Below, piece after piece: positions 1 through 6,818 of a DNA stretch of 64,000 nt. Both the position numbers and the translations under genes were made by a program. The stretch spans positions 1 to 64,000 of the IMG/VR virus record IMGVR_UViG_3300042868_011386, one strand, 5' to 3'. Position 1 is the first letter of the stretch, and every line of letters starts with the position of its first letter. The stretch comes from a virus. A model generated the notes under the pieces. That model did not search any database. It had not been told where the DNA came from and saw only the letters and a program-made list of their open reading frames with translations.

Positions 1-25
1 AAACGGACCAGTTTTATAATGAAAG

Positions 26-308
26 GGGCTTGTAGCTCAGCGGTAAGAGCAGTCGACTCGATAGGGTCTTCTTATTAGAAATAGTAAGTTAGCAGAACTT
101 AAATTCAGGGAACGCTTAACGGGTAATGCCGATGCCAATCCTGAGCGAAACCTCGAAAGAGGGACGTGCAGAGACTATAATAGTTCAATCTTAACAGGTT
201 ATGCTGAAGATTAAGGGATAGTCCAGACCACAAACTGAAAAGGTAGTGAAAACTATAGTGGTAAGCATAATCGATTGGTCGCAGGTTCGAATCCTGCCGG
301 GCCCACCA
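26..308 (+). tRNA. tRNA with CAU anticodon, most likely tRNA-Ile2 (lysidine type), split by an intron (exons 26-58 and 266-308)
   Basis: Joining the exons gives GGGCTTG...GTCGA-CT-CAT-AA-TCGAT...GGTTCGAATCC...CGGGCCC-A-CCA. It resembles ileX-type tRNAs and has no initiator features. Confidence 0.9.
59..265 (+). ncRNA. Group I self-splicing intron (IC3-like, 207 nt, no ORF) inserted after U33
   Basis: P1 helix GACUC/GGGUC with a U-G pair at the 5' splice site; P/Q/R/S-like motifs AAATTCAGGGAA, AATCCTGAGC, GCAGAGACTA and GATAGTCC; terminal G at 265. Confidence 0.9.
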
Positions 309-324
309 TTATAAATATTATGAC

Positions 325-1122
325 ATGGTTTTACGTGCACTGCTATTCATTACGAGCCTACTTGTAGCTGGATGTGCCGCATGGTTTTCAGTACTCGGCA
401 TTGCTACACTCTTTAGTGGCAGCTATGTTTCAGTGCTCATCATGGCGAGTGCACTTGAGATTGGCAAACTTGTAGCGACGACCTATTTGCATCACTATTG
501 GACGCATACATCAGCACTCTTAAAAGGCTATCTCGTCACAGCTACACTCATACTCATGTGTATAACTTCACTCGGTATTTTTGGTTATCTATCGTCTGCC
601 TATGCTGTAAACTCAATACAATTTTCTAACATCGACTCCCAGGTTGGGTCTCTTCAAGAACGTAAGAGCGGCATCGACTCTGAAGTCTCACAAATCAACT
701 CACGAATAGAGACACTAAACGCTGCGCGGCGCTCACAAGAAGAACGCTTGCCAAAGATGTCTGCGGCAAATGCACGACCAATCTATGCTGACATTGAAAG
801 AACAGCGGCTGAAATGCAAGCACAGCGCGAGAGAATAGTTCAACTGCAAGACAGCAAGAGAGAGCTTGACACACAAATACAAGAGCTAAAACTCAAGATG
901 TCGGCATCAAAAGACATTGGAACGTTTAAGTTTATTGCCGATCAGTTTAATCTGCCGCTCGATACAATCGTAATGGCCTTTATATGCATAATCATTGCTG
1001 TGTTTGATCCACTTGCTATTGCACTGCTGCTGTCATACAACAGCACACTTTCCAAAACACTCATGAAAGACAAGTCAGTTGATGTATCAAATCGCATCTA
1101 TGACCTGTCTGACGGTCTATAA
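325..1122 (+). CDS. Membrane protein with central coiled coil (conserved phage hypothetical)
   Basis: Three N-terminal TM segments, a coiled coil and a C-terminal TM with FDPLA; late promoter TATAAATA at 310-317. Confidence 0.7.
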   Translation: MVLRALLFITSLLVAGCAAWFSVLGIATLFSGSYVSVLIMASALEIGKLVATTYLHHYWTHTSALLKGYLVTATLILMCITSLGIFGYLSSAYAVNSIQFSNIDSQVGSLQERKSGIDSEVSQINSRIETLNAARRSQEERLPKMSAANARPIYADIERTAAEMQAQRERIVQLQDSKRELDTQIQELKLKMSASKDIGTFKFIADQFNLPLDTIVMAFICIIIAVFDPLAIALLLSYNSTLSKTLMKDKSVDVSNRIYDLSDGL

Positions 1123-2566: not shown

Positions 2567-3025
2567 CTAATAGTTAGTCTTGCCAAAGCTGTAGAGCATC
2601 GGATTGTCGCTTGATCCAGTGCCAGTTGTGGTGACATCCTTTTTAGCTGGAGTAAATGCATAAATCTCACGTTGAGCACGATCTGCATCAATCCATACTT
2701 CTTTATAGTTGCTGTCGCGAATGAGCAGCATTGGCGCGCCATGAATATGAGCATAGCCAACACACTCTCCACGAATGCTGTCAGAGCCAGAGTGAACTTC
2801 TAGATATTTTCCAAAGAGTGGAAACTTGTCTACTTGTCTGTTTACAGTATCGACAGCTGAACCAAGATCGTCTTTGCTTATGAGATCTTTTCCAATGTAG
2901 ATGCCTTTGCCTTTGGCACGATAGCTCGGAAAGGTTACGATGCCTTCGCTTAATTGTTCTTGAGACAACACATGTGCAGCGGCAGAAACCAATGGGTCTT
3001 CTTTGTATGATGTGAAATTATTCAT
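2567..3025 (-). CDS. Putative internal head protein with shared leader
   Basis: N-terminus MNNF..YKEDPLVSAAAHVL...LSE; late promoter at 3035-3042 (minus strand). Confidence 0.65.
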   Translation of the reverse strand: MNNFTSYKEDPLVSAAAHVLSQEQLSEGIVTFPSYRAKGKGIYIGKDLISKDDLGSAVDTVNRQVDKFPLFGKYLEVHSGSDSIRGECVGYAHIHGAPMLLIRDSNYKEVWIDADRAQREIYAFTPAKKDVTTTGTGSSDNPMLYSFGKTNY

Positions 3026-3079
3026 AATCTATCTTATTTATACTTTTCTCGAATTATGAAAATGTATAAATAGTCTTAT

Positions 3080-3649
3080 ATGCAACCCTTTGACAACTAT
3101 AAAAATGACTCTCTTGTGAGTGCTGCAGCAACGATTCTGGAGGGCAAGACTCATGACGAATGTCTTCAAGAAGCGCAGAGCGCAATTATAAAACGCCTAT
3201 TATCAGAAATTGACAATTTAAATAGAAGTCAAATGCAAGAATTTTTACTTGCATTTGCTGATCATATGGATGAGATGACAAAATATGCATCATCACGTGA
3301 TCACAAAGGCAATCCAAAAGACGTCATTAAAAAAATAAGTGATCATCTCTATGACGCAGCAAGAGCAGCAAGCGGATTAAAGACTGGTGAAAAGTATGGT
3401 TATAATGAAGGTGTAGAAGATGAAGGCGAGACACTGCAGGAATATTACACCGCTAAATTTCCACTTGCTAAAAAGGCAATGGAAGCAGTGCGCAATCTAG
3501 ATGAAGATGAAATGGAAGATTTCTTATTTGCGCTTGATAGCTTTTTCGAAGAAGGCGAAATGTCTGACTATAAAGAATCAAGCAATATTTCTGCACTAAT
3601 CTATAAAGCAGCACAAATTTGGAAAAATAGAAACGAAAGATATGCATAA
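3080..3649 (+). CDS. Putative internal head protein with two related helical modules
   Basis: Leader DSLVSAAATILEG...LQE; internal linker EGVEDEGETLQE; TATAAATA at 3065-3072. Confidence 0.65.
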   Translation: MQPFDNYKNDSLVSAAATILEGKTHDECLQEAQSAIIKRLLSEIDNLNRSQMQEFLLAFADHMDEMTKYASSRDHKGNPKDVIKKISDHLYDAARAASGLKTGEKYGYNEGVEDEGETLQEYYTAKFPLAKKAMEAVRNLDEDEMEDFLFALDSFFEEGEMSDYKESSNISALIYKAAQIWKNRNERYA

Positions 3650-4139
3650 AGACCCGCTTATAGAAGCAGCAACAAGAATCCTTCAAGGCAAGCCCGAAGA
3701 CTTACAAGAGTCTTTTATGCGTTTGCCTGGACATGTCATCAACAATGAATTATACACGCTAGGCAAATCATTTCAACAATTTGTTGATTCAATAAAACGT
3801 GGCGATGACTTTGATCCAAAGAAGATCAACTCACTTATAACTGCATTAAATTCCATAAAGTCTTCTGCAAAAACTTTTAAAGATGGAGAAAGTGTTCCTG
3901 TTTCATATCAGTATGGAAACGTAAAGGAAGCTGCTGAACAAGACGCAGGCGAATATGACGCTGAAGGCAGCATGGCTAAAAATGCACTGCGCACAATCAT
4001 TCGCAACGCAAAAGGATTGCATGACATGCTAAGCGACGATGAAAATTTACCAGAGCACGTTCAAGCAAATCTTGTAAAGGCAGAAGAGTATGTTGTCAGT
4101 GCTCGTGACTATATTGAAAGCACAAAGGAAGCAGAATAA
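3642..4139 (+). CDS. Putative internal head protein with two modules
   Basis: Leader DPLIEAATRILQG...LQE; C-terminal EGSMAK...LPEHVQ...AEEY module. Confidence 0.65.
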   Translation: MHKDPLIEAATRILQGKPEDLQESFMRLPGHVINNELYTLGKSFQQFVDSIKRGDDFDPKKINSLITALNSIKSSAKTFKDGESVPVSYQYGNVKEAAEQDAGEYDAEGSMAKNALRTIIRNAKGLHDMLSDDENLPEHVQANLVKAEEYVVSARDYIESTKEAE

Positions 4140-4148
4140 ATAAGACAT

Positions 4149-4592
4149 ATGAATAATTTTCATTACAACCAAGACCCGTTGTATGCCGCTGCAGCAAAGA
4201 TACTCAGCGGCACAACATTAACAGAAGATGCATCGCATGCATCTGCCCTTAAAGAACTTAAAGCTTCTAAGGGTGCAGAGATGTTAAAATCAAAAAACAA
4301 TCATGTATTTGGTAAAAATGGTGGATTTTCTGCAGCTCAAGAAGACGCTGACACAATTGCTATTATGATTTTCAAGCAGTCGAACAAAGGATGGATTACC
4401 AAGACCACATTCTACACAATTGAAAAAGAAGATGGTGAAAGTTATTTTAATGTCTATAGTCAAGATGTAACACACATCGCAAATCCAAAAGTGTCTGCTG
4501 AAAAGGTCTATGAGATTGCAAAGCAACACAGCGACAGCAAATACTATTTCAAAACCTTCGATCAAAAATTAGAAATTAACGAACTAAACTAA
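4149..4592 (+). CDS. Putative internal head protein
   Basis: Leader MNNFHYNQDPLYAAAAKILSG..LTE. Confidence 0.65.
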   Translation: MNNFHYNQDPLYAAAAKILSGTTLTEDASHASALKELKASKGAEMLKSKNNHVFGKNGGFSAAQEDADTIAIMIFKQSNKGWITKTTFYTIEKEDGESYFNVYSQDVTHIANPKVSAEKVYEIAKQHSDSKYYFKTFDQKLEINELN

Positions 4593-4610
4593 ATATAAAT
4601 AAATTAACAC

Positions 4611-6761
4611 ATGAATAACTTCCACTATCACCAAGACCCGATGTATGCTGCAGCTACAGCAATTCTAACTGGCAAAACTCAACTGCAAGAGTCTGATACT
4701 CTTGACGAAGCAATTGATTGGAACCTTATCCAATCAATGTATGTAAAAGACATTATTGATATTGTAGCAGCATTAGTAATTGGAGGAGGAATTGGTGTAG
4801 CTGCTATATTTGGTGGCGCAATAAAAAGATATCTTTCAGATAAAGCAGACGAAAGAGACGCAAAGGAGTCTGCACAATTCTTAAAGAGCACACTTGATAA
4901 AATCTTAAAGGACAGCAAATCAAAAGAGCTTATTTCACAAATTAAATCTTTTCCTTATTCATCAAAATCTACAGAAGAAGCTAAAAAGAATAACGAAGAG
5001 CGTAAAAAGCTAGTTAGAGCTTATAGTGCACGTCTCAAAACATTATTAAGCGATGATGAGTATGCATTGATAAATGACATCTATAACAATACCATTCGTG
5101 AAAGCGCTGATACTCTTGAAGAAGGAGTCGAAGACGTCAAGTCAATCGTCGACACCCTAAAGGTTGGCGACACTACAAACTTTGGCAAGGTGTTAGAAAT
5201 TGGGACTAACAGCATTACATTCAAGGCAAAAGATCTTCCAAAGACAACAATCGCGTTTAACCAACGCAAGATGGGCAGCTCAGAATTTTTACTTCTCAAA
5301 ACAATCAAACTAAAGGAAGAGACTGAACTTGAAGAAGAGGACGTTGCTGAAGCATACAAGCCATTACGCAAACCAGCCGACCTCATCGACGAATTACAGA
5401 GTATAGTCGACGCCCCAGATTCAAAACTTTGGGACGTCACAAGTGTGTCTATTCGTTTAAGTCATGAAGATATTTTTGATCGTTTTCCAAAGATTTATGA
5501 CTATGTTGAAGATATGTGGTTTGAAATTATGCAACCAAATGGTGCTAAAAAGACAAAAGAAATTGCTAAAAAAGCAATTGAAGCAGTGCGCAAATATTAT
5601 CCAGACCTCAACAAATCTCAGAAAAGCAATCCAGTCTATAAAGAAGATAGCATCGAAGAAGAAACAATTGATGAAGCAATCAACTGGCTTGGTGACTATC
5701 TTACTACTTCTGAAAAGAGTCAGTTTGGCGGCTATCGTCCGACTATACTTGATAAGAAAACTAAAAGAGTTATGTATCAATCTGCAGCTGCATATAATAC
5801 CCCACAAGAGGCAAAGGATCATGCTGAAGACTATCTCAAGCAAAAGGCAAAAGGCATCAGAGATCCTAAAGTTCCGGTTGTTGGTACATATAAACGTGAA
5901 AACAAAAACAAAAACCACAATGGCACTTTCGGTTTGAATCATCGTCCATCTTTCAGCGATAGCGACGACTACGGCCTGTTCGGTTGGTTGGGCGAGACTG
6001 ATGAAAAGATGGATGAAGCAGCAGATGCGGCACTCAAGCGCCGCAAGCAAGTTGATATGGCCAAAGTAAATGCTGGCGCTATGAATCGCGATGACTATAA
6101 CAAAAAGTATAAACTTGGTAAATATCGTCCAGCCGGCAGCAAATTGTCTGGTCCAGGTGGAGTCTATAAAAATCTTGTTAAGGAGGAAGAGACACTCGAA
6201 GAAGCTGTTGCAACACCAGCAGTGCAAAAGCTTATAACATCAATTGATATGCTAAGCCCTAAAGACTATCTAGTTTTCTTACAGGCACTCGCAGACAATG
6301 CACAAGGCATCGCTAATATGAGTCGTCCAGCAAATGCAAGTGGGTACTCAAATGCAAAGGCATGGGCAACAGTGGCTGATCATATTTCTGCAGCAGCTGA
6401 TGCCTATGCACAGCGTCCAATTCGTATTGAAGGCACAGAAGTCGAAGGTGAGACTCTTGAAGAAGCTGCTAACATCAAACCAGTGCAAGGAAAATATATC
6501 TTCTTTATTCAAGACCGCGAACTCTATCAACTCGACCCATATAAACTGCTTGCAAAGACTGATTTTGATCGAATCTCTAGCAGCAAACTTATGTCACACA
6601 TGAAATTAGGCAGCGAGTGGAAAGCAGTATCGGTTGCATGGGGAACAGATCTTCTTGAGATTGGTGCACTCGAATCTCCAAAAGATATATCTGATGCAGA
6701 GCAATGGTATGTCGTGCCTCATTTATATGACAAAATCACGCATCTCGCATTAGTACACTAA
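4611..6761 (+). CDS. Putative internal head polyprotein (leader plus 7 modules)
   Basis: Leader MNNFHYHQDPMYAAATAILTG..LQE; repeated acidic TLEE/TLDE/TIDE linkers; TATAAATA at 4594-4601. Confidence 0.7.
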   Translation: MNNFHYHQDPMYAAATAILTGKTQLQESDTLDEAIDWNLIQSMYVKDIIDIVAALVIGGGIGVAAIFGGAIKRYLSDKADERDAKESAQFLKSTLDKILKDSKSKELISQIKSFPYSSKSTEEAKKNNEERKKLVRAYSARLKTLLSDDEYALINDIYNNTIRESADTLEEGVEDVKSIVDTLKVGDTTNFGKVLEIGTNSITFKAKDLPKTTIAFNQRKMGSSEFLLLKTIKLKEETELEEEDVAEAYKPLRKPADLIDELQSIVDAPDSKLWDVTSVSIRLSHEDIFDRFPKIYDYVEDMWFEIMQPNGAKKTKEIAKKAIEAVRKYYPDLNKSQKSNPVYKEDSIEEETIDEAINWLGDYLTTSEKSQFGGYRPTILDKKTKRVMYQSAAAYNTPQEAKDHAEDYLKQKAKGIRDPKVPVVGTYKRENKNKNHNGTFGLNHRPSFSDSDDYGLFGWLGETDEKMDEAADAALKRRKQVDMAKVNAGAMNRDDYNKKYKLGKYRPAGSKLSGPGGVYKNLVKEEETLEEAVATPAVQKLITSIDMLSPKDYLVFLQALADNAQGIANMSRPANASGYSNAKAWATVADHISAAADAYAQRPIRIEGTEVEGETLEEAANIKPVQGKYIFFIQDRELYQLDPYKLLAKTDFDRISSSKLMSHMKLGSEWKAVSVAWGTDLLEIGALESPKDISDAEQWYVVPHLYDKITHLALVH

Positions 6762-6784
6762 TACTAATTAAAAAATAATATAGA

Positions 6785-6818
6785 AAAAGTCACTCGGGCC
6801 ACTCTGAGTGACTTTTCT
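6785..6818. terminator. Intrinsic terminator (bidirectional shape)
   Basis: AAAAGTCACTC...GAGTGACTTTT. Confidence 0.8.

Follow-up and report, generated by a model that had tools for sequence, protein, structure and literature searches.

Why would a single phage gene encode seven small, mutually dissimilar protein modules strung between short acidic linkers that carry motifs of the kind cut by a prohead protease? The question is raised by P0001, a gene for a 716-amino-acid (aa) polyprotein within the stretch of DNA analysed here (the window, 64,000 nucleotides (nt)), which is the first 64 kb of an 89,457-bp IMG/VR contig (IMGVR_UViG_3300042868_011386; ~53% complete). The source is an uncultured freshwater (lake-water) T4-type myovirus. 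Its contig encodes T4-type baseplate proteins (gp6-, gp53- and gp5-like), and the gp6 homologue has just 37% identity to gp6 of Methylophilales phage Melnitz (Kyanoviridae). Based on the sites between the modules, their conservation, the leader in front of them and the sharing of modules with the head scaffold, we consider it likely that P0001 is a leader-targeted, late-expressed chain of the prohead core, which is cut by the head protease into seven small DNA-associated proteins. A single gene would thus probably supply the capsid with several small proteins.

P0001 has 73 homologues of 393–1253 aa and 45 shorter ones. Among cultured phages, a tblastn search with P0001 against 50,697 phage records gave no match. 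The metagenomic origin of the sequence, together with the chimeric look of some family members (P0113, below), could suggest an artefact of assembly or annotation, such as the chimeric joining of metagenome sequences or a fusion of reading frames. Near-identical full-length genes on many independent contigs exclude this in practice. A DNA contig from another study (X4, record 23) covers nearly the whole stretch, from 4147 to 6798, and lake-water metagenomes repeatedly hold window DNA: all or part of it was found in 19 listed runs other than the probable source, most of them metagenomes of lake water or freshwater. With the additional sign of purifying selection on most modules, we find such an artefact scarcely credible. 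Parts of the gene are also spanned by contigs from RNA libraries; DNA carry-over is possible there, so these contigs are not taken as proof of transcription.

Cleavage-type sites at the module borders

An earlier interpretation made from the DNA alone (the sequence-only reading) had described seven linkers, each followed by a module starting with Ala or Gly. All seven linker strings were found as quoted, with A, G, A, A, A, A and A as the next residues, and the predicted module-proximal cuts fall after residues 33, 171, 247, 355, 469, 531 and 618. The motif [LIM][DE]E[AG] occurs six times in P0001 against 0.23 expected, a count that none of 20,000 shuffles reached, and the broader [LIVMA]xE[AG] occurs eight times against 2.7 expected (p = 0.004). 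The linkers have an isoelectric point (pI) of ~4.1 and a net charge of -3 to -7; the cores of modules M1–M5 have a pI of 8.1–10.1, and M6 and M7 are near neutral. At the upstream ends, a hydrophobic-x-Glu motif is present in six of the seven linkers, the exception being RIE with Arg at P3 (the third residue before the cut), and the residue after the cut (P1′) is S, S, E, D, T, E and G, a series that does not follow the A/G pattern.

Conservation was counted in 41 aligned relatives, with percentages given among the rows having the site. At the downstream sites 33, 171, 247, 355, 469 and 618 the motif is kept in 89–100% of rows, with P3 varying among L, I, V and M and P2 among E, D, N, A, T and Q; at site 531 it is kept in 25 of the 41 relatives. 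Among upstream sites, only LQE↓S, IRE↓S and LKE↓E (arrows mark candidate cuts) are kept, and the other four drift, e.g., to VKK↓E or KMS↓E. The proposal that the sites come in pairs therefore stands for the module-proximal member of each pair, which is conserved, but not for the upstream member, which drifts in four of seven cases.

Family-wide junctions were picked only by an acidic context and by Glu followed by A, G or S. Among 218 such non-redundant junctions, P3 was Leu at 115 (53%), Met at 18, Val at 13 and Ile at 10, compared with a Leu background of 7.6%, and P1′ was Ala at 137 (63%). The codons at the seven P0001 sites differ (CTT/CTC/ATT/ATG/GTT; GCA/GCT/GGA), hence conservation acts on the protein. 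Site density per 100 aa was 0.85 in the family and 0.17 in control open reading frames (ORFs). In the relative G001, which is 97% complete, only three ORFs of at least 100 aa contain at least three acidic-context sites, and these encode the polyprotein, the gp22 scaffold and a tail- or baseplate-like product, the last so called from the look of its sequence, as no family search was run on it.

Three relatives with the same locus (G001–G003) encode both Peptidase_S77 and Gp23 above Pfam cut-offs; the Peptidase_S77 protein of G001 is 214 aa long (L022 10271–10915, minus strand). In G001, the gp23 segment SAYLAE↓GNS aligns with SFLTE65↓AEIGG of T4, which is the known T4 maturation position. The T4 gp23 propeptide has 65 residues, and the T4 protease follows the rule L/I-X-E (PMC9026906). 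The claim that the inter-module sites follow the rule of gp21 is in agreement with these data, in that the sites fit the L/I-x-E of a gp21-type protease present in near-complete relatives.

A different explanation of the same linkers is that the late protein P0001 stays uncleaved, whether in the virion or elsewhere, with the acidic linkers as flexible connectors between its domains; the shared linker endings and the shared leader would then stem from common ancestry or from hot spots of recombination and would mark neither protease sites nor a targeting signal. In linkers rich in Glu, x-x-E motifs arise more readily by chance, cleavage itself is a step that we infer, and short shared junction DNA such as GAAGAAGC could favour recombination. 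The shared junction DNA is, however, at most ~14 nt long, the P3 Leu and P1′ Ala frequencies are well over background, and the motif class persists despite changes of residue and codon. Furthermore, sites of the same type are present in the scaffold and at the position where gp23 is matured, and the scaffold, which has modules in common with P0001, is itself a known protease substrate. We regard an uncleaved protein as quite improbable.

Module shuffling and predicted structure

In line with the sequence-only reading, under which module content should not be invariant, the module content of relatives changes by gain, loss and exchange at the linkers. Many relatives lack M1 and have the leader fused straight to M2; inserted blocks separate M2 from M3, M4 from M5, and M6 from M7; and extra modules stand ahead of M7 in P0004 and P0018. 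M4 and M5 are also present in quite different chains, sometimes in tandem, with M4 having the most diverse contexts. The ends of high-scoring segment pairs lie within 12 residues of a site in 81% of cases, compared with 24% expected, and a rough segmentation of 246 proteins gave ~270 segment clusters. Module content differs even between phages whose neighbouring genes are 90% identical. Synonymous divergence (dS) is unequal across modules within single genome pairs, being 0.00 in M1 and 0.63 in M4 between the window and L001, and 0.03 in M4 and 1.57 in the leader between the window and L009, which points to recombination module by module. Purifying selection acts on most modules, with a ratio of nonsynonymous to synonymous divergence (dN/dS) of 0.04–0.3, and M6 is the least constrained (0.29–0.86). 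Contigs from two RNA libraries contain a joint that skips M1, running from 4654 to 5121, as well as 449 nt inserted within the M2–M3 linker, and further contig divergence points fall in linkers, at 5647 and 6198.

Several family members show unusual arrangements. P0084 (335 aa, metagenome) comprises the leader, M1 and a linker, followed by a complete product of the type encoded at 4149 with its own internal leader, and is a fusion of two neighbouring cargo genes. P0087 and P0088 (76–99 aa) are free-standing M3-like genes lacking leader and linker. In the small proteins P0089, P0111, P0112 and P0118, a Cys-rich acidic N-terminus is followed by one or two copies of the basic M5, each copy preceded by T-x-E↓A. 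P0113 (314 aa), in which the N-terminal part of a 5′-3′ exonuclease is joined to an M4 piece with a linker, is either a chimeric metagenome contig or a true capture of a module by another gene.

The seven modules have no pairwise similarity at E < 1e-3. The AlphaFold model of the whole chain has a mean confidence (predicted local distance difference test, pLDDT) of 48 and a predicted template modelling score (pTM) of 0.25, with confident islands in M1–M5, values of ~50 in M6 and values below 50 in all linkers. The model thus predicts beads on a string and no integrated fold, as would be expected if the chain is not one integrated structure, and a Foldseek search with it returned nothing at E ≤ 0.001. 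Modelled alone, M2 reached a pLDDT of 77, and its fold searches gave generic small beta-barrels only (Foldseek E ≥ 0.055, VIA Z ≤ 5.9); matches to the MscS beta-domain, Hfq and Tudor stayed below the level that would mean more than a common arrangement. The M3 searches gave generic helical bundles only. The M4 core has a pLDDT of 75–80, and its resemblances to DUF1508/YegP-like or Arm/AP2-like folds are weak leads only. M6 is related to the first module of the ORF at 3080 (E = 6.5e-6).

The leader, its neighbours and the scaffold

The leader is not confined to P0001: variants of it open five adjacent late genes, starting at 3025 (minus strand), 3080, 3642, 4149 and 4611, whose proteins are otherwise unrelated (Table 1). 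The core common to the five is D-P/S-L/M-x-x-A-A-x-x-I-L, and a hydrophobic-x-Glu site follows within ~10 residues in each, the leader ends being LQE↓S with LDE↓A (4611); LTE↓D (4149); ILE↓G with LQE↓A (3080); LIE↓A with LQE↓S (3642); and LSE↓G (3025). Among 1.84 billion cluster representatives, 616 matched a profile of the leader plus M2 at E ≤ 1e-3, and 97 of these reached E ≤ 1e-30; the matching proteins are 68–903 aa long and have widely different downstream content. M2 is the usual partner of the leader and nearly always adjoins it. In G001, a pattern scan found leader-bearing ORFs only at the polyprotein locus, and a degenerate DNA pattern of the leader retrieved only close relatives from IMG/VR. 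A signal peptide was rejected as an explanation of the leader, which lacks a basic n-region and has a hydrophobic run of just ~8 residues. At another locus (L039, 1833–3944, minus strand), a 703-aa protein has the same MNNFHYNQDPLYAAAA leader and a largely different module set, which includes a DUF5661-like piece and two M6-like modules.

The octamer TATAAATA occurs 19 times in the contig, and 13 of the 19 copies sit 4–18 nt 5′ of ORF starts, several baseplate genes included, on which basis we take it to act as a T4-type late promoter in this phage. The classification of P0001 as a late gene is upheld by a copy 9 nt upstream of it, arranged as for the baseplate genes. Between the octamers and the start codons, no Shine-Dalgarno sequence is evident. 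Given the spacing of 4–18 nt, the late mRNAs of the phage would be nearly leaderless.

Table 1. Positions of the polyprotein gene, its leader and modules, the neighbouring leader genes and the late-promoter octamers in the window
Feature	Position (nt)	Residues	Strand	Remarks
Polyprotein gene P0001	4611..6761	716 aa	+	ATG start
Leader	4611..4709	1-33	+	core DPMYAAATAIL; modelled helix 10-20; candidate cuts LQE27↓S and LDE33↓A
M1	4710..5123	34-171	+	Gly/Ala-rich transmembrane-like helix, then Lys-rich helical region; ends TLEE171↓G
Transmembrane-like stretch IVAALVIGGGIGVAAIFGGAI in M1	4761..4823	51-71	+	read from the translation
M2	5124..5351	172-247	+	helix and small SH3/Sm-like beta-barrel; ends DVAE247↓A
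M3	5352..5675	248-355	+	helical bundle, pLDDT 60-82; ends TIDE355↓A
M4	5676..6017	356-469	+	three strands and a helix (356-426), variable tail; ends KMDE469↓A
M5	6018..6203	470-531	+	very basic, core pI 10.1, net +9; ends TLEE531↓A
M6	6204..6464	532-618	+	helical; ends TLEE618↓A
M7	6465..6758	619-716	+	C-terminal; no confident model
Neighbour gene	4149..4592	147 aa	+	same leader (MNNFHYNQDPLYAAAAKIL...LTE↓D), leader match E = 4e-11
Neighbour gene	3642..4139	165 aa	+	leader variant MHKDPLIE↓AATRILQGKPEDLQE↓S
Late neighbour gene	3080..3649	189 aa	+	TATAAATA at 3065; leader variant; two M6-like helical modules
Divergent late gene	2567..3025	152 aa	-	TATAAATA at 3035-3042, minus strand; leader variant ending LSE↓G
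T4-type late promoter TATAAATA of P0001	4594..4601		+	perfect copy, 9 nt before the ATG
TATAAATA copies near start codons	310, 3065, 4594, 8247, 42256, 47203, 48153, 51691		+	
TATAAATA copies near start codons	3042, 8250, 32940		-	

The modules of P0001 are also found in the head scaffold. M1 lies within the N-terminal extension of the gp22-type scaffolds P0053 and P0060 (T4_CASP E = 3.7e-60 and 4.7e-58, respectively), and M2 in scaffold P0060 and in the fusions P0157, P0159, P0179 and P0188. In addition, T4_CASP or a PHROG head-scaffolding family was detected in 6 of 96 further family representatives, with M1 or M2 in the N-terminal position; P0001 itself has no T4_CASP (PF25623) domain according to Pfam. 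The gp22 scaffold is located inside the prohead and is a known substrate of gp21, for which reason the sharing of M1 and M2 is the strongest indirect evidence that the modules are cargo of the prohead core, released by the protease. In G001, gp22 (L022 8715–10250, minus strand) holds another module in this position, bordered by x-x-E↓A sites. Since different relatives hold different modules at this one place, the scaffold would itself be a cargo carrier. The gp22 proteins of this lineage have ~510–900 aa compared with 269 in T4, and possess a long acidic N-terminal extension in which swappable modules are flanked by x-x-E↓A or x-x-E↓G.

The sharing with gp22 also lends itself to an explanation in which P0001 is a processed head-core protein whose pieces are parts for assembly and packaging, either discarded or kept as structural internal proteins, and not effectors directed at the host. 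M1 would then be a membrane tether, M2 a scaffold-binding or size-determining element like T4 gp67/gp68, and M5 and M4 DNA-condensing or charge-balancing pieces. This is consistent with the near-constant position of M2 next to the leader and the presence of M1 and M2 in gp22 scaffolds, with the transmembrane-like helix of M1, as T4 proheads are built on the membrane and come away from it once gp21 has cut (PMC9026906), with the pI of 10.1 of M5, and with the lack of resemblance of any module to a known anti-defence family. Furthermore, no gene was noticed in the 228 nt that separate the portal gene of G001 from its protease gene, the place of gp67 and gp68 in T4, although no family search was made there. 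Structural parts are, however, usually conserved, yet here module content varies between phages with 90% identical neighbours, ~270 rough segment clusters occur in 246 proteins, and many relatives dispense with M1. We consider a purely assembly-related role rather unlikely as an account of the whole chain; the effector and assembly explanations can both be true, for different modules. M1, with its transmembrane-like helix, and M2, as the leader's constant partner, may have an assembly rather than a host role, and the very basic M5 and the strand-strand-strand-helix M4 may bind DNA. No export signal precedes IVAALVIGGGIGVAAIFGGAI.

The sequence-only reading had gone further and proposed that the modules are injected anti-defence or takeover effectors. 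This part did not gain from the analysis: folds were generic, M1 and M2 could serve assembly, no module resembles a known anti-defence family in Pfam, and because no module matches Pfam above cut-off, the effector interpretation is without direct support. Among the 96 family representatives, Pfam identified only T4_CASP and KTSC (two), plus DUF5856 below cut-off in P0106. One of the 96 representatives gave a match to phrog_832 (Alt-like RNA polymerase ADP-ribosylase; E = 8.9e-9), which was not used, as the member was not located; it was sought in 20 candidates and not found, and a scan for the R-S-E motif was empty. T4 Alt aligns weakly, and only to the scaffold part of fusion proteins.

A proposed loading scheme and its precedents

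Taken together, these observations suggest the following course of events, in which P0001 would serve as a packaged and processed chain. The arrangement of the locus indicates that a late promoter reads P0001 together with four neighbours bearing the same leader. The leader (~20–33 residues, a short helix with the core D-P-L/M-Y-A-A-A-x-x-I-L) would act like the T4 capsid-targeting sequence, so that the whole chain would enter the scaffold core before the shell closes. Judging from the motif, its conservation, and the protease and gp23 site of the relatives, a serine protease of the Peptidase_S77 family would then recognise E/T-(L/I/M/V)-x-E followed by A or G and cut after the Glu at the end of each acidic linker, which would remove the leader and free seven proteins of ~6–15 kDa. 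By analogy with T4 IPI*, IPII* and IPIII*, the folded, mostly basic modules would be too large to exit the shell and would remain with the DNA, leaving with it at infection, and the short acidic linker peptides would be lost. Under such a leader-plus-linker grammar, recombination could add, drop and swap modules with their folds untouched, and the N-terminal extension of gp22 would be a second carrier for the same modules.

Several points weigh against this scheme. Homology to the T4 internal proteins was not found, with no PHROG family matched by P0001 or the ORFs at 3080, 3642 and 4149; in Pfam, the leader-bearing proteins (P0001, its seven modules and the ORFs at 4149, 3080 and 3025) gave only sub-threshold noise, and with nothing above cut-off in P0001 or its modules, no module function was recognised. 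The motif L/I-x-E is short, and the acidic linkers are Glu-rich anyway. The contig itself, at ~53% completeness, contains neither Peptidase_S77 nor Gp23, and the protease is taken from relatives for that reason. The free-standing M3 genes have no leader, from which it follows that M3 also works outside the delivery route. Lastly, packaging, cleavage and ejection are steps that we infer.

A broader possibility, which we put forward tentatively and hold to be somewhat doubtful, is that a leader plus acidic linkers ending in L-x-E↓A form a general, evolvable loading grammar, under which any small domain placed between two linkers, or in the N-terminal extension of the scaffold, would undergo capsid packing, release by the head protease and injection, with the modules as effectors of the first minutes of infection. 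If so, the uncharacterised modules of freshwater and marine T4-type phages, numbering in the hundreds, would be a large effector library (anti-defence, takeover), and module-by-module recombination among co-occurring phages would be a mechanism of the arms race. The more restricted scheme for P0001, if true, would account for the way in which T4-type phages in the environment package numerous small proteins and reshuffle them rapidly, with the scaffold carrying modules as well. It would also make hundreds of dark-matter modules candidates for early-acting functions and provide a model from nature by which one gene could load several proteins into T4-based delivery particles.

The capsid-targeting sequence and internal proteins of T4 are the textbook case of proteins coinjected with DNA, with one cargo per gene. 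Like the genes for T4 IPI, IPII, IPIII and Alt (PMC3012670, PMC9026906), the genes described here are late genes outside the head cluster, in a phage that probably has a gp21-family protease like that of its relatives; they place a short shared N-terminal leader, ending in hydrophobic-x-Glu, on unrelated fast-evolving proteins, and their products are small and mostly basic. Unlike the T4 internal proteins, they have a leader two to three times longer and no PHROG internal-protein match, and in contrast to one cargo per gene, P0001 combines one leader with seven modules and internal sites, and the scaffold also carries modules. In T4, IPI* blocks GmrSD and Alt ADP-ribosylates RNA polymerase, whereas no function was recognised in the modules here. 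The P0001 system appears to work like the T4 internal proteins and Alt, but by sequence it is not a member of those families.

The polyvalent proteins (Iyer et al. 2017, PMC5512222) similarly hold many unrelated domains per polypeptide with shuffled content, and are proposed to accompany the DNA into the host and to be split by processing into individual units (PMC5512222). Unlike these proteins, which contain their own peptidase (e.g., MPTase) and conflict domains, P0001 has no embedded peptidase or known domain, and release would be left to an enzyme acting in trans, the head-maturation protease, which would recognise a fixed motif in the linkers. Several prohead-protease sites per chain are also known from T4 gp22 and from the propeptides of phiKZ, 201phi2-1 and SPN3US (PMC10052503, PMC9026906), and the gp22 of the relatives has the same type of site and even the same modules as P0001. 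The cuts in gp22 and in the giant-phage proteins destroy a disposable scaffold or propeptide, whereas those predicted here would separate conserved regions that are under purifying selection and mostly predicted to fold. Giant-phage proteases (phiKZ/SPN3US) prefer A/S/G-x-E, in contrast to the L/I/M/V found here at P3, which corresponds to the T4-type rule. The polyproteins of RNA viruses, in which one product is cut by a viral protease at short conserved junctions, offer an analogy only, as they differ in protease class, and here the virus is a double-stranded DNA phage in which processing would take place inside the capsid. A search of the literature for cargo polyproteins of this kind found no description. 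Compared with the single-cargo genes of T4, the new element would be the multi-cargo chain with protease joints.

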